A DNA stretch of 64,000 nucleotides from a virus, in the IMG/VR virus record IMGVR_UViG_3300025451_000012, positions 9,671 through 73,670 of that record. One strand, written 5' to 3'. The notes under the pieces were generated by a model. That model had not been told where the DNA came from. It saw nothing but the letters and a program-made list of their open reading frames with translations, and did no database searches. The first letter of the stretch is position 1; each line of letters begins with the position of its first letter. The translations under genes were made by a program, and so were the position numbers. This document shows positions 4,816-49,574 of the stretch, one piece after another.

Positions 4816-4844
4816 TTGACATTAAATGGTTTCCGTGATACAAT
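4816..4844 (+). promoter_or_regulatory. early promoter (TTGACA-17-TACAAT)
   Basis: sequence. Confidence 0.6.
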
Positions 4845-4873
4845 ACATGTATTGAAACGATAAGGAACTGGAA

Positions 4874-5020
4874 ATGAACTTCACGCTGATTACATCAAAT
4901 GGTAAAGTTCTCACATTTTTCGTCAAAGCCGTAGCTGAAACGTATCAGCAAGCATACGGTGGTGTTATCGTCACAAACACAATTCTCACACAAAAGGAAA
5001 TTCAAAATGTCTCTTAAACT
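4874..5020 (+). CDS. small ORF (48 aa) not in track; translationally coupled to next gene (TAA overlaps ATGTCTCTTAAA)
   Basis: RBS aaggaactggaaATG; own translation MNFTLITSNGKVLTFFVKAVAETYQQAYGGVIVTNTILTQKEIQNVS. Confidence 0.3.
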
Positions 5021-5249
5021 CAAAGCTCTACTCATTCTGGCTGGATTCATGGCTGGTACAGTCGCCGCAGCAGGCCTAGTACATTACATTGCACACAATG
5101 TCTCTGTGGAGACAATTCAAACTGCATTTTCAGTCGGTATAATGAGTGTACTATTGTACACCGTGTATGGATTAATCCTTTCTAAGTTGGAACATGATAA
5201 AAAAATTGACGAAATCTCTGCAAATATCAACAAAATTACTTCCAAATAA
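5007..5249 (+). CDS. hypothetical single-pass membrane protein (start refined from 4959)
   Basis: RBS aaaaggaaattcaaaATG; TM segment LKALLILAGFMAGTVAAAGLV. Confidence 0.5.
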   Translation: MSLKLKALLILAGFMAGTVAAAGLVHYIAHNVSVETIQTAFSVGIMSVLLYTVYGLILSKLEHDKKIDEISANINKITSK

Positions 5250-5497
5250 TGAGTAAGACTATTCCAGAAGATCACCGAGACCTTCTGGGTCGTACTGTGG
5301 CAGAGGGTGATGCAGTCGCATACACCCATCACAATAGCCTTTATGTGGGTAAGGTTATCAAAATCACACCCAAGCAAGTTCGTGTCGTTGATATGCTATC
5401 AAAATACCGTGATGATACTGGTTACCTAAAGTACACGTGTCAATGCGTACTGATCGGCGGCCCTGACCTAACAATGCACCTATTGAAGAACCTATAA
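5249..5497 (+). CDS. hypothetical protein
   Basis: ORF track; TAATG coupling. Confidence 0.5.
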   Translation: MSKTIPEDHRDLLGRTVAEGDAVAYTHHNSLYVGKVIKITPKQVRVVDMLSKYRDDTGYLKYTCQCVLIGGPDLTMHLLKNL

Positions 5498-5502
5498 AAA
5501 GG

Positions 5503-5531
5503 TTGACGGTAAATGGTTTCGGTGCTATAAT
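5503..5531 (+). promoter_or_regulatory. early promoter (TTGACG-17-TATAAT) with conserved leader
   Basis: sequence. Confidence 0.65.
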
Positions 5532-5563
5532 AGAATCTTAGACAGTAAAGAACAGGAACTAAA

Positions 5564-5851
5564 ATGCGTGAAAAACACAGTCCAACAATCAGTGCAGCAT
5601 ACATCAAGGACAAGAAGTGGTTCAAAAAGTATAGCGACTACGACAATCAACCGGTTGCTTGGTTTATCTATGACCCTGAAGGTTATGACCAGTGCGGCTA
5701 CGATGAGGACGAGATTGACCGCGCAGGCAATACAGAGTCTGCCTACTACTATCTAGCGGATGATGGCACTGAAGGTGATTGCAACGACTTCTATGAGGAG
5801 ATAGCAAATGAATGGACTTTTGATGGGGTGAAACCTGTTAAAAAAGGTTGA
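5564..5851 (+). CDS. hypothetical acidic protein
   Basis: ORF track; conserved leader/RBS cagtaaagaacaggaactaaaATG. Confidence 0.55.
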   Translation: MREKHSPTISAAYIKDKKWFKKYSDYDNQPVAWFIYDPEGYDQCGYDEDEIDRAGNTESAYYYLADDGTEGDCNDFYEEIANEWTFDGVKPVKKG

Positions 5852-5876
5852 CAATAAATCACTTTGGGTATATAAT
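5848..5876 (+). promoter_or_regulatory. early promoter (TTGACA-17-TATAAT)
   Basis: sequence. Confidence 0.65.
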
Positions 5877-5908
5877 AGAATCTTAAACAGTCGAAACAAG
5901 GAATCAAA

Positions 5909-6181
5909 ATGACTTTGCAAGAAATCAATCGTTCTATCATCGCAGGCACTTTCTCTAACGAAGACCTGAATTCAATCAATGATGCAATCAAATTTGCTCG
6001 TGGTCAAATCGCAACGAAAAACAAATTCACCCTAGTCAAGGGCTCACAAGTAAAATTCACTAGCTCACGCTCCGGTCAGACTGTGATTGGTTCAGTTGAA
6101 AAGGTGAATCGTAAATTCATTATCGTCAAGTCTGGTATGACCAACTGGCGTGTCCCTGCAAACATGTTGTCTGCTGCTTAA
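5909..6181 (+). CDS. hypothetical protein
   Basis: ORF track; conserved leader. Confidence 0.55.
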   Translation: MTLQEINRSIIAGTFSNEDLNSINDAIKFARGQIATKNKFTLVKGSQVKFTSSRSGQTVIGSVEKVNRKFIIVKSGMTNWRVPANMLSAA

Positions 6182-6203
6182 TTTTTAAACTCTAGGAAAA
6201 ATC

Positions 6204-6419
6204 ATGGAAAAAGTTGTCGTTGTCGTTGGTGCAGTTGTTCTTGGTATCATGGGCATTCTGTTTCTCAGTTTCTTGCTGAGTTGGCCGGTGTACATGTTGT
6301 GGAACGGTTGCTTGGTCGGCGCCATCGCAGGAGTGGCCGAAGTGACTTGGTTGCAAGCATGGGGCTTGACCGTACTGAGTGGTTTCTTGTTTAAATCTAC
6401 CGTGAGCAAATCAAAATGA
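6204..6419 (+). CDS. hypothetical membrane protein
   Basis: ORF track; RBS taggaaaaatcATG; two TM segments. Confidence 0.5.
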   Translation: MEKVVVVVGAVVLGIMGILFLSFLLSWPVYMLWNGCLVGAIAGVAEVTWLQAWGLTVLSGFLFKSTVSKSK

Positions 6420-6583
6420 GCCGAATGTCTGAACTCTACTACGATATTGAACTGATGCTGGAACAGGGCGATTCACCTGTCAAAATCGCTCAATATCTAC
6501 AAGTGCCCATCAAATGGGTGTACGAAGTTTCCGAGTCTTCGGATGAAGAACTGAGTCCATTCAAAACTGTCAACTCTTAAGGT
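6416..6583 (+). CDS. small ORF (~55 aa) not in track; possible HTH-like protein
   Basis: ATGA overlap with upstream stop; own translation MSRMSELYYDIELMLEQGDSPVKIAQYLQVPIKWVYEV... Confidence 0.35.
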
Positions 6584-6596
6584 TCCTATGCTTATC

Positions 6597-6734
6597 CTCA
6601 ATTTATTGTGCCTCATAGCCTGTGCCTACTTTGTAGCTATAGACAGAACTTGGAGTCTTGCATGGTGGATAAGCGGAATCGGAGTCATTTTCAACACCTT
6701 CGCAGTGCTTACCGTTCTAGCCTAAATTTGACAT
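6597..6734 (+). CDS. small hydrophobic peptide ORF (45 aa) not in track
   Basis: own translation MLILNLLCLIACAYFVAIDRTWSLAWWISGIGVIFNTFAVLTVLA; weak RBS. Confidence 0.25.
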
Positions 6735-6756
6735 TAAATGGATATTCTGCTATAAT
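6728..6756 (+). promoter_or_regulatory. early promoter (TTGACA-17-TATAAT); overlaps 3' end of preceding small ORF
   Basis: sequence. Confidence 0.6.
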
Positions 6757-6789
6757 ACATACATAGACAGTAAAGAACAGGACATTGAA

Positions 6790-7011
6790 ATGCGTACAGA
6801 ACTCGGACAAGTGGCTCAAAGCAAATTCAACAATAAGTGGAGTATTACCCTAGTAAGTTACAAGGGTATTCCCGGACAAGAATATGTCTGCTCTGAGGTT
6901 GAAAGTGCTGCGGTTTTTGCTACAGAAGACGAAGCATACGCAGGCGGAACTCGTGCCCTTGATATTCTTGAAGAAACCGGTGTCTTCCCTAACATGTGTG
7001 AAGCATTTTAA
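6790..7011 (+). CDS. hypothetical protein
   Basis: ORF track; conserved leader. Confidence 0.55.
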   Translation: MRTELGQVAQSKFNNKWSITLVSYKGIPGQEYVCSEVESAAVFATEDEAYAGGTRALDILEETGVFPNMCEAF

Positions 7012-7024
7012 AGGTTGACATTAA

Positions 7025-7053
7025 ATGGTTTCGGTGATATAATAGAATCTTAA
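7025..7053 (+). promoter_or_regulatory. early promoter (TTGACA-17-TATAAT), consensus copy
   Basis: sequence. Confidence 0.7.
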
Positions 7054-7076
7054 ACAGTAAAGAACAGGACTATCAA

Positions 7077-7487
7077 ATGGCTTACATGAATCAAGAACGC
7101 AAAGCAGAACGTGCCCCAGCTATCAAAGCAATTTTGAAAAAGTACAACGTCAAAGGTTCGCTTGCTGTGCGCAATCACATGACTTTGGTTTTGAACATCA
7201 AGAGTGGTTCTATTGATTTTATCGGCAACTTCAACGATACCGTTAGTGCTGATCCGTATCTCTCTGCACGAGGTTTCAATAAAGCGGAAAAGTCTCTGGA
7301 CGTGAATCCTTATCACTATCAAAATCATTTCAGCGGTGACGCTAAAGCATTCATGCAAGAAGTTTTTGCAGTTATGAATGGTGGCAATCACGACCGCAGC
7401 GACATTCAAACCGACTACTTTGACGTGGGCTGGTACGTTGACGTGAACGTTGGTCAATGGAACAAACCTTACACAGTTGGTGCATAA
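7077..7487 (+). CDS. hypothetical protein
   Basis: ORF track; conserved leader. Confidence 0.55.
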   Translation: MAYMNQERKAERAPAIKAILKKYNVKGSLAVRNHMTLVLNIKSGSIDFIGNFNDTVSADPYLSARGFNKAEKSLDVNPYHYQNHFSGDAKAFMQEVFAVMNGGNHDRSDIQTDYFDVGWYVDVNVGQWNKPYTVGA

Positions 7488-7642
7488 TATGAACAGTTAT
7501 CGGGTCCGAGTTTTTATGAGTGAATCCTACTATCAGGATATGGTCCTTTCAGGTGATACTTGCTGGGTTGCAGAAGGTATGGGGCGAGGTATGAGCCCAA
7601 TCGGTAAGGCAATCTTTTTGGGCGAAGCCTAATAAAAACGGC

Positions 7643-7671
7643 TTGACACAAAAAGTGTTTGGTGTTATAAT
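7643..7671 (+). promoter_or_regulatory. early promoter (TTGACA-17-TATAAT)
   Basis: sequence. Confidence 0.65.
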
Positions 7672-8642: not shown

Positions 8643-8849
8643 ATGATCTTAACCACATTCCGTAAAGCGTTTGCTGAACGCCGAGAGTTCAATCCAGCTG
8701 ACAAAAAAGATTTAGCTGAATTGAAATACTTTAAGGTAAATGGTAAATGGAAACAGGGTTGCCCCTTCTATTTGGAAGACCCCTACATTGAAGTGCCTGC
8801 AATGTGTGATCATAAATTTACAAATTACATGCTAATGAAAGTAAAATAA
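8643..8849 (+). CDS. hypothetical protein
   Basis: ORF track. Confidence 0.45.
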   Translation: MILTTFRKAFAERREFNPADKKDLAELKYFKVNGKWKQGCPFYLEDPYIEVPAMCDHKFTNYMLMKVK

Positions 8850-8876
8850 AAAAGCCCCGAAAGGGGCTTTTTATTT
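8848..8876. terminator. bidirectional intrinsic terminator (AGCCCC-GAAA-GGGGCT flanked by A-run and T-run) between convergent + and - gene blocks
   Basis: perfect 6-bp GC stem, GAAA tetraloop, TTTTT 3' and AAAAAA 5'. Confidence 0.8.
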
Positions 8877-8878
8877 GG

Positions 8879-10594
8879 TTAGAATGTGTACCATTGCGTA
8901 CTTGATGACGCACTAAATTCTACCCTACTGTTTGACGTTAGTACAAACGCAGCGTTTGCAGCCAATGAATTAATTGTGCCACCTGCAGCAGGAAAAACGT
9001 TTACACTGTTTGCACTGGTGTTTACTATTTTGATTGAAACACCTGTAGTTGGAGTAGGCAGTACTGCACTATTAGCTCCGTTGATTGAGGCAGTAATAAC
9101 ATTCAACTGTTTGGTCAATGCAACTGCCGCTGATTGAGTTGCTCCTGTACTTGATACTGATGCAGCTACTGATTGTGACACTAGATTGGCTACTAGAGTA
9201 TCAGTAGTAACTGATCCAATCACTGAAACATTGCCACCAACGTTTAAGTTCTCACCGATACCTACGCCACCCGCAACCCTTAATGCGCCGGTTGTAGAAT
9301 TAGTTGATGTGGTCAAAGTGTCCACTTGTACATTTCCTGCTGCAACTTGTATCGCATACGGATTTGTGAGTGTGATATTGCCACCTGCGATCGGTGCGCC
9401 TGCAACATAGAATGATGCAGCTTTTGTCACCGTGACAGTATAATTTGCAGCAGCAATTGTTGGTCTAGCAATAGTATGAATATGTGCATTTGCTACATTG
9501 CCTGATGCAAGAGTTGAATTATCAGTATATGTCGCACCTGTTGCAATAAAGCCTATACCAGTTGTTCCCCATGCACTAGTTATCTTAGCACCTGAAGTTG
9601 TCACCGTTACACCCTGTACGGTACGGGTTGTAATGAGATTACCACCAGTGATGTTACCAGTAGCAACAACTTGTCCGGCAGTGGTCAAATTACCACCAAT
9701 TACGTTACCTGTTACATTGGCAACTCCTGCTGTAACTAAATTGCCTGCGTTTACATTACCCGTTACATTCGCAGTAGTGTTACTAAGAATCTTTGCTGCG
9801 ACTAGATTGCCGACTAACGTAATATCATTAGGAATCTCTACTGTGATAGTTCCTGATTGGGTGATTGGACTGTTTAATACAGTCAACGTATTACTCGCTA
9901 CATCAACACGAGTTACTGTGCCAGCCGCTTTCAGTGTAGATGAGATAGTAATTTCACCAGTGATTCCACTTAGCTCAATACCAGTACCAGCTGTAAGACG
10001 AGTCACACCTGTATTGGTAATTACAATTGTTCCGTTACCGATAATAGGACTACCGGTAACTGCGATTCCATTGCCGAACGCTTGCATTGCTACACTAGTT
10101 ACTGTACCGGCTGATGCAGTGTTTGTGATGCTAGTGATTCTACCGTATGCGTCTACGGTCATTGTGGGTGCAATATATTGACCCGGACTAAATTGTAGTC
10201 CTTGTTCTATCATAGGCAATTCAATACCAATGATACCTGCACTGATAACTGGACTATTTGAGACAGTGAGTGTGCTTGATGTTACGCCAACGCTAGTAAC
10301 ACCTGTATTTCCGTTACCCGATGCAGAGATAGTAACGTTACCGGCTGTGTTCGATACAGTAACGCCTGTTCCTGCAAGTACATTTAGTACTCCTGTATTG
10401 GTAATAGTAACTGTATTTCCGGATTTTTCAGTAAGTATGCCATTACCTGCTGTAAAATTTTGATAAGGACTAGCTGTTGAAAATAGTGTAGTGAAGTTTT
10501 CTTCTGTTTTGGTAAATGCAGAAAATAGACTATCTGCGCCTGTTGCTTGATTTTCTACCCCTACTTGTATGTGTTGTTGTCCTGAAATAGCCAT
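8879..10594 (-). CDS. tail-fibre-like / beta-helical repeat protein (Gly/Thr/Asn/Val-rich, almost no charged residues)
   Basis: 571-aa ORF; repetitive GNxxxTGNV motifs typical of phage fibre/adhesin shafts; late-promoter-like motif upstream. Confidence 0.65.
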   Translation of the reverse strand: MAISGQQHIQVGVENQATGADSLFSAFTKTEENFTTLFSTASPYQNFTAGNGILTEKSGNTVTITNTGVLNVLAGTGVTVSNTAGNVTISASGNGNTGVTSVGVTSSTLTVSNSPVISAGIIGIELPMIEQGLQFSPGQYIAPTMTVDAYGRITSITNTASAGTVTSVAMQAFGNGIAVTGSPIIGNGTIVITNTGVTRLTAGTGIELSGITGEITISSTLKAAGTVTRVDVASNTLTVLNSPITQSGTITVEIPNDITLVGNLVAAKILSNTTANVTGNVNAGNLVTAGVANVTGNVIGGNLTTAGQVVATGNITGGNLITTRTVQGVTVTTSGAKITSAWGTTGIGFIATGATYTDNSTLASGNVANAHIHTIARPTIAAANYTVTVTKAASFYVAGAPIAGGNITLTNPYAIQVAAGNVQVDTLTTSTNSTTGALRVAGGVGIGENLNVGGNVSVIGSVTTDTLVANLVSQSVAASVSSTGATQSAAVALTKQLNVITASINGANSAVLPTPTTGVSIKIVNTSANSVNVFPAAGGTINSLAANAAFVLTSNSRVEFSASSSTQWYTF

Positions 10595-10610
10595 ATATTC
10601 ATCCTTATTT

Positions 10611-10620
10611 AGTATTTATC
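10611..10620 (-). promoter_or_regulatory. T4-late-promoter-like element (GATAAATACT; 7/8 match to TATAAATA) ~25 nt upstream of fibre-like gene ATG
   Basis: rc of plus agtatttatc; followed by RBS AAGGATG. Confidence 0.3.
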
Positions 10621-10947
10621 TCAAACACTAAATGAGCTACCGCAGCCGCACGTTGATTGTGCTTGGGGATTCTTTATCTTGAAACTAGCACCCATTAGTT
10701 CTTCTACGTAGTCAACCTCAGCACCCTCTAGATATTGTGCGCTCATACTGTCAACTAATACACTACTATTACCGGCCGGAATCTGCCAGTCATCTTCATT
10801 TATTTCTTCATCTAGGGTAAAGCCGTAACTAAATCCACTGCAACCGCCACCTTGTACAAACATACGTAGGTGTATTGCTGGATTATTTTCTTCCGCTAGG
10901 ATATCTGCAATTTTATTGCGGGCAGAGTCTGATATTGTGATGTTCAT
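10621..10947 (-). CDS. erpA: A-type iron-sulfur cluster carrier (HesB/IscA/ErpA family)
   Basis: [11 protein letters not shown] and C-terminal [11 protein letters not shown] motifs; near-collinear similarity to E. coli ErpA. Confidence 0.8.
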
Positions 10948-10980
10948 ACAGTATTTAGTGTGTATGAACGTGGCTAACGA

Positions 10981-11196
10981 TTATCGGCGACGTGTAATAC
11001 GACCCTTGCTCAAGTCATATGGACTGAACTCAATCTCAACTACATCACCTAGCAATATTTTGATTGCATGTTGACGCATTTTACCTGATATATACCCGGT
11101 CACCGTAGGACCTGAGGTTAATACTACTCTAAAAACAGCATTGGGCAACACATCAGTTACCGTACCGTCCATTCTAACACCTTCTTCTTTTGCCAT
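10981..11196 (-). CDS. infA: translation initiation factor IF-1
   Basis: 71 aa; [24 protein letters not shown]...ISGKMR...[20 protein letters not shown] closely parallels bacterial InfA (S1-like OB fold). Confidence 0.85.
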
Positions 11197-11215
11197 ACTA
11201 TTTGCCTTAAGCTCC

Positions 11216-11539
11216 TTATTTAAATACTCGGGCTTGCAACTTTGCCCACATGAATTTCTTCATTTCTTCTTCATCTTTGGTTACATACTGATATATGCCA
11301 GTAGTACGCTCTTTGATAATCTTTACACCACCACGTGGACCTTGACGCCAAACTTTGTCGCTAACTGTGGTAAGTCTATTGAATCTCAATAAAGAACGAG
11401 GCCCGTCAGTTGTGAATGAATAGGTGCCAGGCCTAATATCAGCACGGTCAAGTGTGACCTCACAGTAATATGTAAAATCAGCCACGGCGCATCCTTGCGA
11501 TATCAATTGCATCTTGGTCACAGAATACTGGAACTGCAT
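11216..11539 (-). CDS. hypothetical protein
   Basis: ORF track; 5' end overlaps upstream gene (true start may be internal). Confidence 0.45.
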
Positions 11540-11873
11540 TGCTCTTATGCAGTTGACCGATACCTAGCATTTTTGTACCTGTGTATTTAGGAGATTCTTT
11601 GTACGTGCCAGCACCTGCTTCACCTGTATTAAGAGAAGGGAAGTGCTTAGTTGTTCGTTGAGTAGGCGTAGTAATACTATACTGCAATGGAGCAGCTTTG
11701 AGCGCACGATTACGCTTCTTTTCTTCTTGCTCTACGCCCCATTTATTTTGCAAGTCTTTCCAAGAGGCATCAAGTTCGCGGGCACGTTGGGCCTCAACAG
11801 CATTCTTGAATTTAGTTTTACCCTTGCGCTTACCACCCATAGTTAGTGAAGGGTGCATCAGATGCATAGTCAT
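11478..11873 (-). CDS. hypothetical basic protein
   Basis: ORF track; early promoter upstream. Confidence 0.5.
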   Translation of the reverse strand: MTMHLMHPSLTMGGKRKGKTKFKNAVEAQRARELDASWKDLQNKWGVEQEEKKRNRALKAAPLQYSITTPTQRTTKHFPSLNTGEAGAGTYKESPKYTGTKMLGIGQLHKSNAVPVFCDQDAIDIARMRRG

Positions 11874-11905
11874 GGCTTAGCTTTAGTCATAGTTGATATG
11901 AGTCT

Positions 11906-11933
11906 ATTATACACGGATCTGATTAAAAGTCAA
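11906..11933 (-). promoter_or_regulatory. early promoter (TTGACT-16-TATAAT on - strand)
   Basis: plus strand reads ATTATA..AGTCAA. Confidence 0.5.
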
Positions 11934-11936
11934 GCA

Positions 11937-12326
11937 TTATCGCTTTAATATTGCCCACATTGCTTCTTTTTCAATGATTTCTTTTTCCAATGCTACGTAA
12001 GCCTCACGTAAGCCTCGTAGATTTTCCCATTTTTCTTCTAGCTTTTCGTTTGGGTGAAGGATAGCTAGTCGTGATTCTATGTTTTCTAGTAATTCGGACA
12101 ACTTCTTACCCTTAATAGTAATTTCACCGTCAAAGTTTGCATCACCTTTTACCTCTAATGACTGGCCAGCGAGATTAGTGCTACCGGTAATAGAACTGAG
12201 ATTAGACCAATTTATGCTATTAGTACCAGTTGTACCAGTTGCACCAACGGTGAGGTATGTGCCATTACTAATAGAGGTAGTGTATACCGGAACGGATGCC
12301 ATAGTATTGTTAATTGTATAAGTCAT
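11937..12326 (-). CDS. hypothetical protein with Thr/Gly-rich fibre-like N-terminus and coiled-coil C-terminus
   Basis: ORF track; TGTTGTNSINWSNLSSITGSTNLAG segment. Confidence 0.45.
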   Translation of the reverse strand: MTYTINNTMASVPVYTTSISNGTYLTVGATGTTGTNSINWSNLSSITGSTNLAGQSLEVKGDANFDGEITIKGKKLSELLENIESRLAILHPNEKLEEKWENLRGLREAYVALEKEIIEKEAMWAILKR

Positions 12327-12517
12327 TCTTTAATTGCTTTCGTCAGTACAAACTGACCTTCATCATCTAACCCAAACTGAATATCATCGCCAGTTTTCCA
12401 TCCTAGCTTTTTCAGCAAGTGAGGGGGAATGGGTAATAGTATGTCTCCGGTTATATCATCTTTCTGAGTGATGACCTCATAGCTGTCAATATGACCTTCG
12501 GGTAATTCATTGCTCAT
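12323..12517 (-). CDS. hypothetical acidic protein
   Basis: ORF track; ATGA coupling. Confidence 0.4.
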   Translation of the reverse strand: MSNELPEGHIDSYEVITQKDDITGDILLPIPPHLLKKLGWKTGDDIQFGLDDEGQFVLTKAIKE

Positions 12518-12518
12518 G

Positions 12519-13076
12519 TTATTGTTGTCCTAGATAGGGAGCGTAAATCTTTTCCAATTGCTGGATAGTGTTTTGTGTGGTCTCATCAATGTGCTTCACG
12601 GCAATGCCACCATGTTCAGACCATGCATTTAGGTACTTGTCATAGTCATCAACTAGCACATTGGGTTGACCACCTGCGGTTGCATACTTGTATTTGGCGC
12701 TAGTGAAGATTGCGTCTTTACTTGTGCCTGGATTGTGTGCATCTAACCACTCTCGCTTGCCCTGCTTACTTGCTTCGGGTTCAATTCTGATAGGAGCGCT
12801 CAGTACAGTATATGGGATGTTGTTCTTCTGTAGCCATTCTACTATAGCATTGCCACCGTGTAATGGTTTCAAATCACGGAAGAATTTGTACACTTGTTCT
12901 GGTCCTGCACTAGCCAATTTTACAATTGACGCTTCGTGGTCAGTGATGTGCTTATAGTGGTGCACATTCTCGTAGTCTGCCCATGCTTGAAAAAAGTCGG
13001 CTTGTACTCCATCCATATCCAGGTATAGATGGGGCATCTTGTCTGTAGCTGATTCCATAATGTCTCGTATCCTCAT
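12519..13076 (-). CDS. HAD-superfamily 5'(3')-deoxyribonucleotidase-like phosphatase
   Basis: HAD motif I LYLDMDGV near N-terminus; size/fold typical of phage dNMP nucleotidases. Confidence 0.65.
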   Translation of the reverse strand: MRIRDIMESATDKMPHLYLDMDGVQADFFQAWADYENVHHYKHITDHEASIVKLASAGPEQVYKFFRDLKPLHGGNAIVEWLQKNNIPYTVLSAPIRIEPEASKQGKREWLDAHNPGTSKDAIFTSAKYKYATAGGQPNVLVDDYDKYLNAWSEHGGIAVKHIDETTQNTIQQLEKIYAPYLGQQ

Positions 13077-21549: not shown

Positions 21550-21578
21550 ATTATATCACCAAAACCATTTAATGTCAA
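21550..21578 (-). promoter_or_regulatory. early promoter (TTGACA-17-TATAAT, - strand) with conserved leader
   Basis: plus strand ATTATA..TGTCAA. Confidence 0.7.
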
Positions 21579-21820
21579 GCCATAGTCAACTGAATTGCCA
21601 AATCTTCCCAAGTTCCAGCGATACCGCATGCACATTGGTCAGCGATTCCATCTCCGGAGCGGGTGAATTCTAGTGCATCAAGCGCCTTTTGAGTAGCAGC
21701 ATTGCACTTGTAAAAGTCACCGACATTATTGCGAATCTGTTTAGCGGTAGAATAGAAACATGCTGGACCAACGATAACACGAAACTTCTGGGTCTGTTTG
21801 AAACGCTTGATAACTAACAT
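21575..21820 (-). CDS. hypothetical Cys-containing small protein
   Basis: ORF track. Confidence 0.5.
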   Translation of the reverse strand: MLVIKRFKQTQKFRVIVGPACFYSTAKQIRNNVGDFYKCNAATQKALDALEFTRSGDGIADQCACGIAGTWEDLAIQLTMA

Positions 21821-21852
21821 TTTGAGTCCTTTTCTTTACTGTCTAAGATTCT

Positions 21853-21881
21853 ATTATATACCCAAAACCATTTAATGTCAA
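21853..21881 (-). promoter_or_regulatory. early promoter (- strand)
   Basis: ATTATA-17-TGTCAA on plus. Confidence 0.65.
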
Positions 21882-22177
21882 GCGATTTCTGCGAGGATCC
21901 GATTGTAAACATCGGCCTTTGCCATGTAGTATTCGTAATCACGTTCGCCGGGACGAAAGTTTTTCCATTGATTCTGACCTGCATAGGACAGGATATCTTG
22001 TTCCAAAGTACCATCAGAATAGTTGGAGATGAAACCGTACATGTCATAGTGTGCAATGAAACCACTGCACAGATACAAAAAGTTGTAACCAGTCTTGTTC
22101 AGGTTATCAATGTTTTTCACTGCCTTGACCACGTTATTGACAATGAGAGTTTTTTGACGTTCTGTGAGTGCTTGCAT
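21878..22177 (-). CDS. hypothetical protein
   Basis: ORF track. Confidence 0.5.
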   Translation of the reverse strand: MQALTERQKTLIVNNVVKAVKNIDNLNKTGYNFLYLCSGFIAHYDMYGFISNYSDGTLEQDILSYAGQNQWKNFRPGERDYEYYMAKADVYNRILAEIA

Positions 22178-22210
22178 TTTCGTGTCCTTTAATTAACTGT
22201 CTATGTATGT

Positions 22211-22239
22211 ATTATATACCCAAAACCATTTAATGTCAA
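22211..22239 (-). promoter_or_regulatory. early promoter (- strand)
   Basis: ATTATA-17-TGTCAA. Confidence 0.65.
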
Positions 22240-22454
22240 GCCTTGAGAATGTCAGTGATCCGTTTGTGGATCATGTCCATTTCACTTTGTTCCAGATAGA
22301 AGTCGGTAGTAGGATCGTAGTACTGACCTTCTTTGTTGTCATAATACAACACTCGTCCCGAGAAGTTGAACGGGCCCTCAAGACCTTTGCGAGGACCGTA
22401 CTTTGTACGCATCATGTCCATTGTGTCTTTGTCTGCAACGATCTTGTAACCCAT
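22236..22454 (-). CDS. hypothetical protein
   Basis: ORF track. Confidence 0.5.
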   Translation of the reverse strand: MGYKIVADKDTMDMMRTKYGPRKGLEGPFNFSGRVLYYDNKEGQYYDPTTDFYLEQSEMDMIHKRITDILKA

Positions 22455-22484
22455 CTTGAACTCCTCTTGACTGTTTAAGATTCT

Positions 22485-22513
22485 ATTATATCACCAAACC
22501 CATTTAACGTCAA
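22485..22513 (-). promoter_or_regulatory. early promoter (TTGACG-17-TATAAT, - strand)
   Basis: ATTATA-17-CGTCAA. Confidence 0.6.
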
Positions 22514-23046
22514 ATATTGGTTACCTTCATTTTTGCTTTGGTATAGAAGATGTGCTGACCAATCTGTTGTATTTTTGCAACAGGATCACGCCACTTTGGA
22601 CTGACGTATTCAGCATGGTAGAACATTGCGTCCTTAAGAGGTGTAACCCGATCTCCGTGCAATACTCGGTGAGCGACCCATTGACTATCAGCCCACGCCG
22701 TGCCACTAGGTTTCTCTAACTTCTTTTTCAATGTCCAGGAAAACTGACTTTTTGCATGGACTACGCTGCAAACGCTGTTACCCCATTTACCGGATTTCAA
22801 TCGGTTGAGTGTAACTTGTGCGACTGCATATTTGCCTTTTTCACTTTCAATGCCAGCTTCGTAGTAAACATTTTTAGCTAAACAATCTTGGTCTTTTTCA
22901 GTGAATGCAACCTGCTCATTCGTTTGAGTAATGAATGCTTGTTTAATTTCAGCTACATCCTGTGAAATTGTTGCCAGTTGATATTGTTGAACTCCAAGTA
23001 CCGCGACCAGTGCAGTACAAGTGACGCCGATTAGGACTTTGCTCAT
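22510..23046 (-). CDS. secreted SleB-like cell-wall hydrolase (Hydrolase_2 family) with signal peptide
   Basis: N-terminal hydrophobic leader; NVYYEAG, VAQVTLNRL, HAKSQFSW, FYHA motifs. Confidence 0.6.
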   Translation of the reverse strand: MSKVLIGVTCTALVAVLGVQQYQLATISQDVAEIKQAFITQTNEQVAFTEKDQDCLAKNVYYEAGIESEKGKYAVAQVTLNRLKSGKWGNSVCSVVHAKSQFSWTLKKKLEKPSGTAWADSQWVAHRVLHGDRVTPLKDAMFYHAEYVSPKWRDPVAKIQQIGQHIFYTKAKMKVTNI

Positions 23047-23078
23047 TAACCATCTCCAGTGTGTCTGTGTAAAGATAC

Positions 23079-23107
23079 ATTATACACCCAAATTGATTAA
23101 ATGTCAA
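23079..23107 (-). promoter_or_regulatory. early promoter (- strand)
   Basis: ATTATA-17-TGTCAA. Confidence 0.6.
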
Positions 23108-24284: not shown

Positions 24285-24320
24285 ATAAAAATGAGGGCTT
24301 GTCAAGGCCCTCATTGTTTT
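24285..24320 (-). terminator. intrinsic terminator (ATGAGGGC-TTGTCAAG-GCCCTCAT) downstream of NadV
   Basis: 8-bp stem; A/T runs both sides. Confidence 0.6.
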
Positions 24321-25752
24321 ATTTACGAGCGTTTGCCCGAACTTCTTCAAAGGTGATTTCTTTTACAAGAGCACCATCACGGTAGACTTCTTCAAGAACC
24401 TCAGTCCAAACCGTACCTTTATCAGTCCATCCCATTGGCATAGTAACCGATGATTGATATTCGCCACCTGATTCCCAAAGTGTAACACGACCACGCTTGC
24501 TACGCTTGCCACTGTCAGTGACGGGGTCTTTGTACACATCGCGCCAGGTAAGTTTCCATCCTGACCCTTGATCACCGTCTTCTACCCATTCACGAATACC
24601 AACTGCACTGCACTTCATTGCCCACTGCATTGTGTCACGGTTTACTTGTTGCAGCAATGCACCACCTTGACCGAACGCCACGTTGTCTGCTGAGAACCCT
24701 GCGATTTCCATACAGAACAAAATGCTGTGGATGCTAGCGTGATTGATACCATCACCCTGAAGGATACGCACTGCTGGGTTTAGTACACGGTAGCCTTTAG
24801 CATTAGTAGTAGAACCAAAATGTTTTTCAAGAATGTACAAACACTTTACAACCACATCACTGGGGTTACCCGAGTCTGGGCGGACGACCAAAGTTGCGCC
24901 ACTGTCAAGGACGTCTTGTTTGAGTACGGTGCCCCAGAGTTCGCAGGCTTGGTAAATGTCGTAGCTGTCCGAGACTGCTGCAAAGATGCCACCTTGCTTG
25001 GCATTTTGTTTGACCATGTTGCGGTATGCGTCAACTTCATTTTCTTTTCCCCATGATGTTACTGTAGAGTGCTCCATAGCTGGGATACTAAATCCAGCGA
25101 TATCAGCATTGTAATACTCCCGAGCAACAAGTAAAGCGGATACAGTGTCCGACCCCATAAAATTAATGAGGTGGGCTGCTCCGCCGAGTCCCGCTGACTC
25201 CATAGAAGAAACACCGCGAGAGCCAAAGTCATGCAACTTAAAATCGATAAGAGTAGGGTCACCTGTTTTCTCCAATGCAGCAAGGATAATTTTTTTAGAT
25301 TCGTAGCTATTAGTTGCTACAGTAGTAGGATACCAAATTGCGCGGAGCAATGCAGTTTCTAGGAAACTTGTAAGCCAGAAGCATTTTGGATCGGTGTTTT
25401 CGATAGTAGCCAACACATTTTTTGTGGGGATGATAAGTCCCTCTGGGGCGCTCTTGATAACGACGGGGAGTCGTCCACCATGGGCTTCCAAGATATAGTC
25501 CCAACCCGCTCGATTGAACGGTTCGCCGTGCGCTGTGATAATGGCTTCTGCAACATCAATGTCTTCCTTTGTAATTGGGGTGGTGAGATACTCTTTAATA
25601 AATGCTTGCAGTCCAAAATAGACTGTATCGTTCCATTGTCCGCCGCGCGATTCAATGTAAGAGTAAACATACTCAGTACCTGCTGGATACTGGTTGAATT
25701 GACTGTATTTGTAGCTATCCGAATTGAGGATAATGTTTTTTGCGAGTTTCAT
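24319..25752 (-). CDS. nadV: nicotinamide phosphoribosyltransferase
   Basis: 477 aa; family-wide conserved segments (FGSRGVSSMESAGLGGAAHLINFMGSDT etc.). Confidence 0.9.
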   Translation of the reverse strand: MKLAKNIILNSDSYKYSQFNQYPAGTEYVYSYIESRGGQWNDTVYFGLQAFIKEYLTTPITKEDIDVAEAIITAHGEPFNRAGWDYILEAHGGRLPVVIKSAPEGLIIPTKNVLATIENTDPKCFWLTSFLETALLRAIWYPTTVATNSYESKKIILAALEKTGDPTLIDFKLHDFGSRGVSSMESAGLGGAAHLINFMGSDTVSALLVAREYYNADIAGFSIPAMEHSTVTSWGKENEVDAYRNMVKQNAKQGGIFAAVSDSYDIYQACELWGTVLKQDVLDSGATLVVRPDSGNPSDVVVKCLYILEKHFGSTTNAKGYRVLNPAVRILQGDGINHASIHSILFCMEIAGFSADNVAFGQGGALLQQVNRDTMQWAMKCSAVGIREWVEDGDQGSGWKLTWRDVYKDPVTDSGKRSKRGRVTLWESGGEYQSSVTMPMGWTDKGTVWTEVLEEVYRDGALVKEITFEEVRANARK

Positions 25753-27223: not shown

Positions 27224-28249
27224 TCAAGCTCCAACTGCCCACATGACCATGTCATAGTGGTCTTCAAAACATTCTTCACTACGCACCTCTGCGATAGGAA
27301 CCCATCGTGCTTTTTCAGCATCGTCACTGCCTTTTACTTTTGGCAACTCACCGTCGGGCAATACGATTTTGAAACAGTGTGTGATAATACGACCACGTGG
27401 TGAGCGATCCACAGCATCAAACACACGATTGTCAACAATACTACCGCGCAGTACAGGACCGGGCACTTTGATTAATGTTTCTTCACGCAATTCACGAATA
27501 GCCGCATCCAATACAGTCTTGTCAGTGTTTGCGTTAACATAACCACCGGGCAATGCCCACAAGCCACGACCTGGTTCAGCACGGCGTTTAATCATTAGTA
27601 CATGCCCTGATTGAATCACGACAGCATCCGCAGTAGAGAAAATAGGAGGGTATTTCAAGCTAGAATATTGTTTTGCGTTCTCAATCAAAAACTCACGCTC
27701 ACGGATAACTTGTTCGTATTCTTTGGACTCTTTGAATTGTTCCAAGAAGTCAAAAGTAGTAGGAGGAACAACGTTACGGATAAAATTCATATTCACATCA
27801 CGCTTGAAATACAAACTGCGAATGTCAGTAGCATCAAGTGGCTCTAGCAATTCAACTTCTTCAAAGCCCCATTGAGGGAACATGTCTAAGTAGAATGAGC
27901 TTGGGTCTTTTCTGTGACCGATGATACCAATTTTGTCACCGGGCTTAGTGTGTTTAGCAACCAATGCCTGTACACGAACTGCCCATGCTTGGTCGTTGTA
28001 AATTGTATCTGGGTTAGGTTCTACACTAACTGTTAGTGTACCACTGAAGCCATTTGTGGCATACTTAATCATTTGCCTACGTTCATCAAAGGTAAACGGA
28101 TTCTTATAAGTGCGGGGCTGATTAGCACTACCGCAGATAAAGATCAAATTGTCAGCTAGTGCAGTTGCACGACCTGCCAATAGTAAGTGAGCAGTGTGAA
28201 ATGGTTGAAAGCGTCCAATGAGGACTAGGGTATCGTACTTTTTTGACAT
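27224..28249 (-). CDS. natV: bifunctional NMN adenylyltransferase / Nudix ADP-ribose pyrophosphatase (NadM-Nudix, NatV-like)
   Basis: N-terminal GRFQPFHTAH (HxGH-type nucleotidyltransferase); C-terminal Nudix box GGYVNANTDKTVLDAAIRELREETLIKV. Confidence 0.85.
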   Translation of the reverse strand: MSKKYDTLVLIGRFQPFHTAHLLLAGRATALADNLIFICGSANQPRTYKNPFTFDERRQMIKYATNGFSGTLTVSVEPNPDTIYNDQAWAVRVQALVAKHTKPGDKIGIIGHRKDPSSFYLDMFPQWGFEEVELLEPLDATDIRSLYFKRDVNMNFIRNVVPPTTFDFLEQFKESKEYEQVIREREFLIENAKQYSSLKYPPIFSTADAVVIQSGHVLMIKRRAEPGRGLWALPGGYVNANTDKTVLDAAIRELREETLIKVPGPVLRGSIVDNRVFDAVDRSPRGRIITHCFKIVLPDGELPKVKGSDDAEKARWVPIAEVRSEECFEDHYDMVMWAVGA

Positions 28250-33559: not shown

Positions 33560-34150
33560 TTAAATTCGTTTAGTCAGAATGCTATCAATGAGTCCGTAAT
33601 CTAGTGCAGCTTTTGCACTCATGAAATTGTCACGTTCCATGTCAGCACTGAACTGGTCGAATGTTTTACCGGTACTGTTGTGGTCAACATAGATTTGGGT
33701 CAGCACTTTCTTCATAGCCAAAATCTCAGTAACCTGAATCAGCATGTCAGTTGCTTGACCGCGACTACCGCCCGATGGTTGATGGATCATGTGACGTGCG
33801 TTTGGCAACATCATGCGCTTACCTTTAGCACCTGATGTTGCAAGCAAGCTGCCCATTGAACAGGCTTGACCCATAACGATTGTTTGTACATCGGGCTTGA
33901 TAAACTGCATTGCATCATAGATAGCCATACCCGCAGTCACTGATCCACCCGGACTATTAATGTACATTGAAATGTCTTTGCCACTGTCTTCACTTTCCAA
34001 GAACAATAGCTGGGCAACAATCAGATTTGCCATTTGATCATGCACTTCGCCTTCGAGCAAAATGACTCGGTCACGCAACAAACGACTATAAATGTCATAA
34101 CTGCGCTCACCCTTGCTGGTTGTTTCGATTACGATTGGAACTAAACTCAT
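33560..34150 (-). CDS. clpP: ATP-dependent Clp protease proteolytic subunit
   Basis: catalytic Ser motif [10 protein letters not shown], His in MIHQPSGG; overall ClpP collinearity. Confidence 0.9.
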
Positions 34151-37396: not shown

Positions 37397-37426
37397 ATTA
37401 TATTACGTATTGTATTTAATAGCAAT
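37397..37426 (-). promoter_or_regulatory. T4-middle-promoter-like element (MotA-box-like aTTGCTAtTA, ~14 nt, TATAAT) upstream of clpS
   Basis: rc of plus 37397..37426; speculative. Confidence 0.25.
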
Positions 37427-37852
37427 ACTCTTTGGCTTCATTTCTTCAGGAAGTTTTCGTTCTAGGTGAAGAGTTAAGATACCGTTAGCATTTTCTGCAT
37501 CTTTGACTTCTACGTGTTCAGCGAGAGTAAACTCACGCACAAAATTCCTATTACTAATACCATGGTGTAGATACTCTTTAGGTTCATCAAAGTTCATGTG
37601 CTTCGTTCCGGTGATGACTAACACCCTATTTTCAATTTGGATATCAATTTCCCCTTCAGTAAACCCAGCAACTGCTAGTTCAATATCAAAGTCATTTTCA
37701 GAACGTTTAACAATGTTATAGGGAGGGTAGTTTGTAGTTGTCTGCCCTGCATTCATTCGCATCAGTTCATCTAACACTGATTCAAACCCAATACCAAACT
37801 TATGAATTGATGGAATATCAATTGAACGTAGCGTTAGTGTTCCATTAGACAT
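37403..37852 (-). CDS. small heat-shock protein (Hsp20/alpha-crystallin, IbpA-like)
   Basis: [23 protein letters not shown]...[12 protein letters not shown] pattern of IbpA/IbpB. Confidence 0.85.
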
Positions 37853-39746
37853 TCTTACTCTCCTTCACTTCTGCATCAACTACGTTATCATCAACCGGTG
37901 CTTCAGTAGCAGATGATTGCTCTGCTGCCTCTGCATCCTGTTTCACCTTAGTAATTGGTCCAATTGCTTCGTACAGTTTGGGAATAGCTTCTTGGATAAC
38001 AGATACGTCTTCACCCTTAACTGCTTCTTCCAATGCTTTGATAGCGTCTTCCGCTAGTGTTTTCTCTTCGGCAGTTACTTTGTCACCATACTTGTCAAAG
38101 TCTTCCTTGAATGTACGTAGTGTACCTTCTGCACTGTTACGTGCTTCAATTAACTCACGTGCCTTCTTATCAGATTCTGCATTAAGTTCAGCGTCTTTAA
38201 CCATTGCTTGAATTTCAGCTTCGGTCAATCCACTATTAGCTTTGATAGTGATCTTATTTTCTTTGCCAGTGTTCTTATCTTTAGCACTTACACTCAAGAT
38301 ACCGTTAGCATCGATGTCCAATGTAACTTCAATCTGAGGCATACCGCGTCTTGCTGGAACAATACCTTCAAGATTGAACTCACCCAATAGTTTATTGAAC
38401 TGTGCTAGCTCACGTTCACCTTGAAATGCTTTGATAGTAACTGCAGGTTGATTATCTTCCGCTGTACTGAATGTTTGACTAGCTTTAGTAGGAATAGTTG
38501 TGTTCTTTTGAATCAACTTACTCATTACACCGCCCATAGTCTCGATACCAAGACTTAGTGGAGTCACATCAAGCAACAATACGTCTTTACGTCCACCACC
38601 TAGCACATCACCTTGAATAGCTGCGCCTGCTGCTACTGCTTCGTCTGGGTTAACATCTTTACGAGGTGCCTTGCCGAAGAATTTCTCAACTGCTTCAACA
38701 ACTTTAGGCATACGTGTCATACCACCGACGAGGATAACCTCGTCAATGTCTGCGTTAGTAACGCCTGCATCTTTCATAGCAATCTTGCATGGCTCAATGC
38801 TACGTAGGATCAATTCTTCAACTAGACTTTCTAGTTTAGAACGATTGATTGTAATGTTCAAATGCTTTGGACCACTTGCATCCGCAGTAACGTAAGGCAA
38901 GTTAACACTAGTGCTTGCAGAACTAGACAATTCAATCTTAGCTTTTTCTGCCGCTTCTTTCAAACGTTGCAATGCAAGCATATCCTTTTTCAAGTCAATG
39001 CCCTGTTCTTGTTTGAATGTATCAACCAAGAAATCCATAATGCGTTGGTCAAAGTCTTCACCACCTAAGAATGTATCACCATTCGTAGACAATACTTCAA
39101 ACTGTTTATCACCATCAACGTCTGCAATTTCAATGATAGATACGTCAAACGTACCACCACCCAAGTCATAGACTGCAATCTTGCGGTCTTTCTTGTCTTG
39201 CTTGTCAACACCGTACGCAAGTGCTGCCGCAGTTGGTTCATTGATAATACGCAACACTTCTAATCCAGCAATACGACCTGCATCCTTAGTTGCTTGACGT
39301 TGACTATCATTAAAGTATGCTGGCACTGTGATAACTGCTTGAGTTACTTCGTGACCAAGATAATCTTCTGCGGTCTTCTTCATCTTACGCAAGACTTCGG
39401 CAGAGATTTGCGGGGGCGCTAGCTTATCTTCGTTGACTTGAACCCAAGCATCACCATTCTCATTCTTGATAATAGTGTATGGCATCAAGTCAATGTCTTT
39501 TTGTACAGCTTGTTCATCAAACTTACGTCCGATCAATCGCTTGCTAGCATAAATTGTGTTTTTGGGGTTTGTAACTGCTTGACGTTTAGCACTTGCACCT
39601 ACCAAGATTTCACCGTTAGCATATGCTACGATACTTGGCGTGGTTCTAGTACCTTCGCTGTTTTCAATTATTTTGGGGATTCCGTTTTCGATGACGGCTA
39701 CGCATGAATTTGTGGTACCTAAGTCGATACCGATGACTTTGCTCAT
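37845..39746 (-). CDS. dnaK: molecular chaperone DnaK (Hsp70)
   Basis: 633 aa; [22 protein letters not shown], full-length Hsp70 collinearity. Confidence 0.95.
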
Positions 39747-39840: not shown

Positions 39841-41049
39841 TTAAATGATAGGAGCCGGGTTTATTACCCGTTCTTTATCAATTAACAGAATTGTTATGTT
39901 GTTTTTCTTATACAACCTAGTGTGAAACATGTGGCACATAAGCACACGTTCAATTTCTGTATGTAAGCCTCTAGCACCAGTCTTCAATAGCAGTGTGTTT
40001 TCTGCCATCTGTTCTAAAGCATCAGTAGTAAATGATAGCTGGATGTTGTCCAAACTTAACAAATACTTATACTGACTAATGTAGTTGTTCTTAACATCAG
40101 TGAGAATATGTACCAATTGCTCTTTATTCAATTCACCAATGCTTACTGTTGTAGTGAAACGTCCGATAAACTCAGGAATCATTCCATATCTAGTTAAATC
40201 ATCAGGACTAACCTTTGTTAGTTCACCTTCAACTTTGCTATCACTGATAGAAGCATGAAACCCAATGCTAGTGCCATTCATACGAGTGGCAATAACATCT
40301 TTCAATCCAACAAAGGCTCCACCTGCGATAAAGAGAATGTCTTTGGTGTTAATTTCTGACATTTCACCACCCGGATGCTTACGTCCACCTTGTGCAGGGA
40401 TACGACAAGTCGTACCTTCTACTAATTTGAGTAGTGCTTGCTGTACACCTTCGCCCGATACGTCACGTGTGATACTAGCACTTTCACCTTTGCGGGCGAT
40501 CTTGTCAATTTCATCAATAAAGATGATACCACGCTCTGCAAGTTTAACATCGCCATCGGCTGCATTGATAAGCATATTAATCATGCTCTCAACGTCATCA
40601 CCTACATAACCTGCTTCGGTCAAACTAGTCGCATCTGCTACGACAAAGGGCACTTTGAGATATTTCGCTGCTGTCTTAGCTAATAGAGTTTTACCACTAC
40701 CAGTAGGACCTACAATGAGAACATTACCCTTTTGAATTTCAATATCTTTTGGTGGATTGTTGATTCGTTTATAATGATTAGCAATAGCTACGCTAAGAAC
40801 CATCTTGGCTTCGTCTTGTCCAATAACATGTTTATCCAAATACTCTTTAATAGCTTCTGGATCATGTACTGGCTCAGGAGGTTCTGCTACACTAACCGAA
40901 GATTCATCTTCAATTAATGTTTGGCATAGATCAACACAGTCATTGCAAATAGCAATGCCCTCACCGACGATTAGTTTCTTTACAGCGTCTTTACTGTTGC
41001 CACAAAAGTTGCAATGGTCTATTAAATTATGGTCTTCGTTCATATTCAT
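39841..41049 (-). CDS. clpX: ATP-dependent Clp protease ATP-binding subunit ClpX
   Basis: N-terminal C4 zinc finger CNFCGN...CNDCVDLC; Walker [14 protein letters not shown]; ClpX collinearity. Confidence 0.9.
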
Positions 41050-45770: not shown

Positions 45771-46568
45771 TTATTTAGGCATCATCAATGCATTGAAGTT
45801 ACTTGGAACAACAATAGTCTGGACCTTGCCGTTCTTGATGCCTTCGGAGATGTTCAACATAGCTTGTGCTTGCATGAATGCAATTGAACTGCCACTGTTA
45901 TTAGCCAATGCTGCCATACGACGGCTTTCAGCTTCGGCAGTCTTAACTTCAACTTCCTTTTGCTTCAATTCGTTCTTACTACGAACCAATGCATTGGCAC
46001 TTTCAACAACGGTGTCGCTAGGCACAACATTACGAATCATTACTTGGCTGATAGTGATTGCACCGTCCAGCTTTTCTTCAGCCATGTTACGCACGATCTC
46101 GTCCTGAATGAACTTTTCCATTTCATTGCGCTTGTCAGCCATGTCCAATGCTTCGTGCTTACGTGCTGCCTTGTAGATAGCATTACGAGCAGTTTGCACA
46201 ATGTAGTTGTACATCACGTAAGTATCACCTTTGAACTCTGCGTGGAAACTCTTGTTCTTAGTTGAATACAATTCTGACACCTGCGATGGATTGATGTTGT
46301 AAACAACCACAGCATCAAAGTCCTTCATTGTGGAGTTGTCAGCAGCCACAGGAGTCATATTCTCCAGGGTGACATTAACGTCCTTGATAGGGAATGTCAG
46401 TACATCACCGATAAAAGTTTGATTGAAAGATCCAGGCAATAGTTCACCACTTTGGACCTGTTTGTCAAAGCCGACACGCACGCCAACCTCGCCAGTTTCA
46501 ATACGAGTACAACCTGTTGCCAAAACAGCAGCAGCCAAAATAGAGAGAGTCAAAATACGTTTCATCAT
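45771..46568 (-). CDS. SPFH/band-7 (prohibitin/stomatin-like) lipoprotein
   Basis: lipobox LATGC; SPFH-like core plus C-terminal coiled coil. Confidence 0.55.
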   Translation of the reverse strand: MMKRILTLSILAAAVLATGCTRIETGEVGVRVGFDKQVQSGELLPGSFNQTFIGDVLTFPIKDVNVTLENMTPVAADNSTMKDFDAVVVYNINPSQVSELYSTKNKSFHAEFKGDTYVMYNYIVQTARNAIYKAARKHEALDMADKRNEMEKFIQDEIVRNMAEEKLDGAITISQVMIRNVVPSDTVVESANALVRSKNELKQKEVEVKTAEAESRRMAALANNSGSSIAFMQAQAMLNISEGIKNGKVQTIVVPSNFNALMMPK

Positions 46569-46574: not shown

Positions 46575-46751
46575 TTAAAATAAAATTACTAAACCAACTA
46601 ACACTATCAGTGATAGTATTGAACACATTATAGCATAGGTTATTGATTTTGTCAAGCCCCATACTTCTTTTCCTGACAATGTTCTGACCCAAGATATACC
46701 AAATCCAAATACAACTGTCAATATCACAAATGCTAAAAATACTTTAATCAT
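46575..46751 (-). CDS. small membrane protein ORF (58 aa) not in track; contains the SPFH-gene promoter
   Basis: own translation MIKVFLAFVILTVVFGFGISWVRTLSGKEVWGLTKSITYAIMCSILSLIVLVGLVILF; ATGA overlap with ligase stop. Confidence 0.3.
   Translation of the reverse strand: MIKVFLAFVILTVVFGFGISWVRTLSGKEVWGLTKSITYAIMCSILSLIVLVGLVILF
46627..46655 (-). promoter_or_regulatory. early promoter (TTGACA-17-TATAAT, - strand)
   Basis: perfect consensus hexamers. Confidence 0.65.
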
Positions 46752-49545: not shown

Positions 49546-49574
49546 TATTATATACCCAAAGCCATTTACCGTCA
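49546..49574 (-). promoter_or_regulatory. early promoter (TTGACG-17-TATAAT, - strand)
   Basis: sequence. Confidence 0.6.

Follow-up and report, generated by a model that had tools for sequence, protein, structure and literature searches.

An IF-1 translation initiation factor and an ErpA-type Fe-S carrier at a conserved locus of uncultivated jumbo phages

We found that a 64,000-nucleotide stretch of an uncultivated viral genome (positions 9,671 to 73,670 of IMG/VR record IMGVR_UViG_3300025451_000012; hereafter the window) encodes a translation initiation factor IF-1 (infA) and an A-type Fe-S carrier of the ErpA kind, both of which retain the residues and fold of their families and occupy a conserved position in a large phage clade. 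We consider it likely that the two genes are long-resident and selected in these phages, with IF-1 sustaining initiation on host 30S subunits and ErpA delivering Fe-S clusters. The two genes and the interval between them are as follows.

10981 to 11196, minus strand: infA, 71-aa translation initiation factor IF-1 (TIGR00008, PF01176, fold and 30S-contact residues)
10621 to 10947, minus strand: erpA, 108-aa A-type Fe-S carrier of the ErpA (ATC-I) type (NF010147, cysteines and fold)
10948 to 10980, minus strand: infA-erpA spacer of 33 nt, at the position of the variable slot in relatives

The source of the window is an uncultivated jumbo phage with a genome of ~360 kb. Identical IF-1 and ErpA proteins were encoded on a 359,393-bp metagenomic contig and the window was 99.7–100% identical to independent JGI, ENA and Logan contigs over 4–15 kb. 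An rIIA/rIIB pair in the window, together with the IMG/VR relatives, identified the sequence as phage. A relative was encoded by 113 IMG/VR contigs, and each of the two proteins matched more than 120 protein clusters at 72–96% identity, many on contigs of 340–367 kb, such that the carriers of infA and erpA form a large clade of uncultivated jumbo phages. Megablast of region 9000–13000 returned zero matches among GenBank phages, leaving no cultured relative from which annotation could be transferred, and the relatives of two other window proteins that we searched were only 25–44% identical. The literature searched held no description of the clade. Aquatic jumbo phages with DnaK have been described as ‘moraphage’ (PMC12619734), and we did not equate the two clades, since moraphage genomes are at most 307 kb with Bacteroidota hosts and IF-1 is unmentioned. 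The survey for further translation and Fe-S genes covered the 64 kb of the window out of the ~360-kb genome, and no tRNA genes were present in it. One IMG/VR contig (3300027749_002876, 524,565 bp) carried two differing infA-erpA regions, whose IF-1 copies were 82% and 85% identical to that of the window; it is probably two related genomes joined and not a real 525-kb phage.

Three further genes share the strand and the neighborhood of infA and erpA.

11478 to 11873, minus strand: p131, conserved phage protein and first gene of the unit (PHROG 27048, E = 6e-22)
11216 to 11539, minus strand: p89, small ORF between p131 and infA, start uncertain, 89–107 aa (ORF list)
8879 to 10594, minus strand: p571, Cys-free, repeat-rich, fibre-like protein (weak match to PHROG 697 ‘structural protein’)

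The gene order p131-p89-infA-[variable slot]-erpA-p571 recurred on 80 or more related viral contigs, which were up to 367 kb long. Across 80 IMG/VR loci, NT5C-p64-p129-p131-(p89)-infA was kept upstream and erpA-p571 downstream. p131 immediately preceded infA in nearly every locus, and p571 always came behind erpA, at a median distance of 55 nt from it (58 loci). Only some of the relatives had p89, for which an 89-aa gene was called on contigs belonging to the window phage. erpA followed infA in 66 of the 80 loci and a further 12 ended too early to tell, while two (L042 and L055) kept infA, sod and p571 without erpA, which indicates that erpA, though near-core, can be dispensed with. The variable slot ranged from 33 nt to 5.7 kb and in most relatives spanned 0.6–5.7 kb, so the two genes, parted by others in most relatives, are not a fixed pair. 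Among the 66 loci with both genes, 49 had an Fe/Mn superoxide dismutase in the slot, 4 had iscU-iscA there, and only 2 had infA and erpA directly adjacent as in the window; over all 80 loci, a dismutase of 183 aa (Pfam Sod_Fe_C and Sod_Fe_N) was in the slot of 61. In four relatives (L049 and L009–L011; L049:6445-12181), IscU (TIGR01999, 219.5 bits, cut-off 192.4) and an IscA-like carrier were encoded directly before erpA. Neither sod nor iscU was found within the 64-kb window, and the dismutase is lost in the window phage. Slots in relatives (L049, L009–L011, L017/L018/L022) also contained genes for a metallophosphatase, a GT2 glycosyltransferase and a LysM/chitinase-like protein.

The product of infA was assigned to IF-1 by NCBIfam TIGR00008 (97.7 bits, cut-off 61.15) and Pfam PF01176 (eIF-1a; E = 3.8e-21, 74.9 against a cut-off of 30.2). 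Collinearity with E. coli InfA, which the initial annotation had read from the sequence, held over residues 1–70 (58.6% identity); a PDB sequence search returned both the P. aeruginosa and the E. coli factor, aligned over this stretch without gaps. The AlphaFold model based on the clade alignment (pLDDT 87.5) was an OB barrel in the order b1-b2-b3-helix-b4-b5, with strands at residues 8–17, 21–26 and 31–36, the helix at 38–42, and strands at 52–58 and 61–70. Foldseek placed this model on 30S-bound E. coli IF-1 (9fco_I) with a TM score of 0.94 and an rmsd of 0.9 Å, and the top 13 PDB entries in its ranking were all IF-1. The initial annotation had also called an initiation factor in a phage unusual, in line with our count of IF-1 in 35 of 50,697 GenBank phage records, several of which are apparently bacterial fragments. 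Its proposal that such a factor could bias initiation toward phage mRNAs is speculative.

Conservation of the ribosome-contact surface was assessed in 120 IF-1 homologues of the clade, using 30S-contact residues listed in 10.1101/2023.10.27.564398 and PMC10913371. K3, N19, F22, G38, R41, Y60, D61, R66 and R70 were invariant, P18 was present in 117 homologues, position 23 was R or K, position 39 K or R, and position 64 K/R; contacts to h44, the 530 loop and uS12 were thus kept or R/K-exchanged. At position 46, where the Arg of bacterial IF-1 contacts A1493, Lys was present in 120 of 120 members, the one systematic change among the contact positions, and further systematic differences from bacterial IF-1 were F69R (118/120), T16V, T49L, T54E and T58S, with an RRR C-terminus clade-wide. 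The retained contact surface and fold suggest ordinary A-site binding on the host 30S subunit, as by the host factor. Phage IF-1 would then raise or maintain the IF-1 pool as host gene expression declines, and with the pool maintained, initiation on phage mRNAs could go on. R46K and F69R could nonetheless make ribosome affinity or behavior differ from that of the host factor.

Some of these clade-fixed substitutions (R46K, F69R, T16V, T49L and T54E) would also suit a protein that serves mainly as an RNA chaperone, cold-shock-like RNA binder or antiterminator for phage transcripts. IF-1 is an S1/OB-fold RNA binder with RNA-chaperone activity among its functions, and at 57–60% identity to every bacterial IF-1 the phage protein lies beyond the cross-phylum divergence reported for C. 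difficile (PMC10913371). We regard such a role as unlikely, because it is precisely the contact residues for h44, the 530 loop and uS12 that stay invariant, an rmsd of 0.9 Å separates the model from 30S-bound IF-1, and the uS12 contacts Y60/D61 would be needless for a plain RNA chaperone.

We assigned the product of erpA to the ErpA type, since it scored 153.5 bits on NCBIfam NF010147 (cut-off 117) and fell below the cut-offs of the IscA (79.4 vs. 150.6) and SufA (80.0 vs. 136.2) models. The three cluster-ligating cysteines and the STCGCGSSF signature at the C-terminus, which had been noted at the outset, were confirmed as C36, C100 and C102 (C-x63-C-x-C), all invariant in 48 distinct relatives. 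The PDB sequence search returned H. influenzae HI1723, an ErpA orthologue, and the AlphaFold model (pLDDT 79.4; below 50 in the Cys-bearing C-terminal tail, as expected of a flexible apo tail) had the fold of A-type carriers, with HI1723, SufA and IscA at TM 0.72–0.77 in Foldseek.

We then considered how far the two proteins have diverged from cellular copies. Among named bacteria in PLSDB, phage IF-1 was 57–60% identical to that of Yersinia, Proteus, Aquabacterium, Aerococcus, Legionella, Bacteroides and Ralstonia, a level that was equal across Proteobacteria, Firmicutes and Bacteroidota and gave no donor signal in any phylum. C. difficile IF-1 is 64–69% identical to IF-1 of several other phyla (PMC10913371), and phage IF-1 is thus more diverged than distant bacterial IF-1s are from one another. 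Phage ErpA was 50.0% identical to E. coli ErpA, and among PLSDB named bacteria it was 52–55% identical to ErpA of Legionella, Pseudomonas and Paraburkholderia, 60% to that of Neisseria and 61% to that of Polaromonas, which would point weakly to Betaproteobacteria as donors. A scan of GTDB species genomes with ErpA gave only six loci (44–53% identity); since the conserved C-terminus was not covered by the 8-mer patterns used, the scan bounds close relatives and does not resolve the donor. No close cellular copy was found, with none above 53% in the GTDB species scan and none above 61% among the PLSDB named bacteria.

The initial annotation had described both proteins as closely gammaproteobacterial and proposed searching for a donor lineage and for deviating GC or codon usage. 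Family membership and functional residues agree with that description, while the closeness and host origin do not, as identities were 50–60% and were not specific to Gammaproteobacteria. A gammaproteobacterial donor was rejected: ErpA matched betaproteobacteria best (60–61%; Polaromonas 61% vs. E. coli 50%), and IF-1 was at 57–60% in all phyla. Composition did not deviate from that of neighboring genes either. Both genes had a GC content of 0.42 and GC3 of 0.32–0.34, and their GC, GC3 and codon usage were within 1 sd of 35 other window genes; a CAI-like codon index of infA was 1.3 sd below the other window genes. Pairwise Nei-Gojobori medians of dN/dS were ~0.10 for infA and ~0.20 for erpA, compared with 0.18 and 0.31 for the phage-only neighbors p131 and p129, values that are rough because dS (~1.4) is near saturation. 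Both infA and erpA are under purifying selection, and their conserved position across a large phage clade indicates old phage genes, not a recent acquisition.

These data bear directly on whether infA and erpA could be recent host-derived passengers, or mis-assembled host DNA, with no role in infection. Both belong to typical cellular housekeeping families, and GenBank ‘phage’ entries matching IF-1 or ErpA include some that resemble bacterial fragments. The same arrangement was nevertheless present on independent JGI, ENA and Logan assemblies (99.7–100%) and in 80 IMG/VR loci, both genes showed purifying selection and phage-like composition, and the cellular copies found in GTDB and PLSDB reached at most 61% identity. 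This explanation is already contradicted by the evidence, and we give it almost no credence.

Expression signals around the locus, and a promoter family found elsewhere in the window, were predicted from the sequence.

11906 to 11933, minus strand: putative sigma-70-type promoter TTGACT-16-TATAAT, 11/12 consensus, before p131-p89-infA-erpA-p571
8849 to 8872, no strand assigned: predicted bidirectional terminator, a 10-bp GC-rich hairpin with A/T runs on both sides (terminator scan)
4816–7671, plus strand: members of a 29-nt promoter family
21550–23107, 28314, 32271, 33452, 46627, 49547–50799, 56068 and 57760, minus strand: members of the same 29-nt family

The promoter lies between p129 and p131, ~60 nt before the p131 start, and the predicted terminator, a strong hairpin, lies 7 nt past the p571 stop codon. 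Of 53 distinct related loci, 47 matched at least 11 of 12 consensus bases at the same position, and 32 matched perfectly. The promoter belongs to a family that is strongly over-represented in the window: perfect TTGACA-N16-18-TATAAT sites numbered 16 (0.06 expected), many of them sharing a 29-nt sigma-70 consensus (TTGACATTAAATGGTTTYGGKDATATAAT), and the long consensus was matched 15 times (0 expected). Members of this family mostly precede clusters of small genes and look like phage early promoters. The T4-type late promoter motif TATAAATA was not enriched in the window (2 vs. 3.5 expected). We infer from these motifs that p131-p89-infA-erpA-p571 forms one unit, transcribed by host RNA polymerase and probably early, such that the unit could be read from the start of infection. 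A Shine-Dalgarno sequence was not recognizable before the erpA ATG (ACACTAAATACTGT, 10948–10980); infA and p571 had AAGG/AAGGA at the usual distance.

A near-consensus and hence probably strong promoter would also fit a phage IF-1 that acts as a competitor or inhibitor, filling the A sites of host 30S subunits, blocking subunit joining and stopping host translation. Excess IF-1 has been proposed to block subunit association and thereby inhibit protein synthesis (PMC10913371), and the whole clade shares R46K and a more basic C-terminus (F69R, RRR end). We consider inhibition improbable, more so than a chaperone role, as the phage needs the same ribosomes, there is no sequence sign of selectivity for host mRNAs, and the amino-acid exchanges are conservative ones. 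At three positions where the phage protein departs from E. coli IF-1, it has the residues of Thermus IF-1 (A20, P30 and Y35). One published list of IF-1 contacts (10.1101/2023.10.27.564398) includes Ala20 and Tyr35. Support of initiation remains the reading that we prefer for phage IF-1.

The route proposed for aerobic E. coli runs from IscU through IscA and ErpA to the target, with ATC-I proteins as terminal carriers (PMC2682760), and the order iscU-iscA-erpA in L049 and L009–L011 mirrors this route. The ATC-I type of the phage protein and the position of erpA in relatives, beside SOD and in some of them beside iscU-iscA, suggest that it functions in Fe-S delivery or repair under oxygen. Phage ErpA would take ready-made clusters from host IscU/IscA, or from the phage’s own IscU/IscA in some relatives, and insert them into apo-proteins, and its delivery or repair would protect Fe-S-dependent steps under oxic conditions. 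Alternatively, ErpA could act as an iron binder, donor or buffer instead of carrying preformed clusters, given that A-type proteins are reported to bind iron alone in vitro and have been proposed as iron donors (PMC2682760) and that the neighboring SOD of relatives is an Fe/Mn enzyme. E. coli genetic evidence favors cluster carriage (PMC2682760), and the placement of erpA directly after iscU and iscA in the four relatives fits a cluster relay; we consider a role in iron handling unlikely.

Candidate targets of cluster transfer by ErpA would include a QueE-like enzyme of the phage, a ferredoxin of a sister strain and 4Fe-4S enzymes of the host. The first of these is encoded near the end of the window.

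61744 to 62592, minus strand: QueE-like radical-SAM protein, candidate ErpA client (PHROG 2076, 181 bits)

A QueE had been reported in this stretch and put forward as a beneficiary of the Fe-S carrier. The gene is present, with a match to PHROG 2076 ‘QueE-like radical SAM domain’, and is plausible as a client; the support is tempered by NCBIfam QueE model scores of 41–58 bits, below cut-offs of 200–300, and by an atypical cysteine motif, in which C32-x3-C36 is separated by a ~36-aa insertion from C73 in a CDSY context and the canonical CxxxCxxC is absent. The ferredoxin gene (7Fe type, CxxCxxxxCxxxCP and CxxCxxCxxxCP) was found upstream of dCMP deaminase in a strain 99.7% identical to the window phage (L001:50-373). 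It was rejected as a window gene, since other small ORFs occupy that place and the ferredoxin is a strain-level variant. Tail-tip proteins of the lambda gpL type are Fe-S proteins, and p571 was considered as a similar client within the unit; it contains no cysteine, and this candidate was rejected.

The QueE-like gene adjoins a QueD/PTPS-like gene (62592–63071, minus strand) and lies near genes for a GT1 glycosyltransferase (60147–61508) and an NAD-dependent epimerase (59320–60150), which together may be a 7-deazaguanine DNA-modification cluster. Elsewhere on the minus strand, ClpP (33560–34150; NF001368, 310 bits), Hsp20 (37403–37852), DnaK (37845–39746; NF001413, 975 bits) and ClpX (39841–41049; NF003745, 515 bits) make up a full proteostasis set with scores at the level of cellular equivalogs. 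The same strand encodes an NAD salvage pair, nicotinamide phosphoribosyltransferase and an NMN adenylyltransferase-Nudix fusion (24319–25752 and 27224–28249), as well as a UvdE UV-damage endonuclease (58238–59272), an ATP-dependent DNA ligase (46751–48109) and an SPFH/Band-7 protein (45771–46568).

A broader interpretation is that p131-infA-(sod)-(iscU-iscA)-erpA constitutes a dedicated takeover module, in which a diverged IF-1 (R46K, basic C-terminus) would favor phage mRNAs or resist host shut-off, and SOD, ISC proteins and ErpA would sustain Fe-S enzymes through a long infection in oxic conditions. We view this as a speculative possibility, somewhat less remote than the alternatives above. 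If true, and taken with the phage DnaK, ClpXP and Hsp20, it would mean that a so far undescribed clade of ~350–367-kb phages provides for its own protein synthesis and maturation on an unusually broad scale. Should the proteins merely complement host mutants, the locus would be a routine case of auxiliary genes. To our knowledge, metagenomic surveys of huge phages list IF-1 among the encoded proteins, but the phage protein has never been tested. The clade offers hundreds of natural IF-1 variants with a conserved core and few fixed differences (R46K, F69R), and since IF-1 is short enough to be synthesized, these variants make it practical to test whether the phage protein supplements the host factor or changes initiation. 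The position of erpA by SOD, and in some relatives by iscU-iscA, supports the view that large phages protect Fe-S metabolism in oxic water.

Compared with bacterial IF-1 (TIGR00008; PDB 9fco and 1ah9, and T. thermophilus 1hr0), the phage protein is of equal length and has the same single OB fold, but it is encoded by a phage and lies behind a promoter of phage early type. Phage ErpA likewise has the three Cys ligands, CGCGSSF end and fold of E. coli ErpA and HI1723 (PMC2682760), and differs from the E. coli protein in the absence of its short N-terminal extension. In bacteria, genes of the ATC-I type are not beside ISC genes (PMC2682760), whereas in some of the phage relatives erpA directly follows iscU-iscA.

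Both kinds of protein are already documented in phages and have PHROG families (phrog_30201 for IF-1 and PHROG 17776 for the A-type carrier); what the present locus adds is conservation across a clade, an early-promoter context and the SOD/ISC slot. Huge phages with IF1/IF3 were reported by Al-Shayeb et al. 2020 (PMC7162821), and a ‘translation initiation factor 1A’ is core in Jug phages (PMC12880540). Those huge and jumbo phages share with ours an IF-1 in a genome of more than 200 kb, read as redirecting or sustaining host translation, but their proteins are at most 57% identical to that of the window (46–57% for Lak phages, Sinorhizobium phage Phosso and others), and the window phage belongs to a different clade. 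A-type carrier and IscU genes have been described as viral auxiliary genes (Nishimura et al. 2017, PMC5332604), with erpA and iscU in HMO-2011-type phages (PMC9038755). In marine phages, Fe-S carrier genes occur with radical-SAM and other Fe-S genes, and the same interpretation has been proposed there. The marine copies are described as scattered among relatives, whereas in the clade described here erpA is near-core in phages of ~360 kb and occupies a fixed site by SOD and infA.
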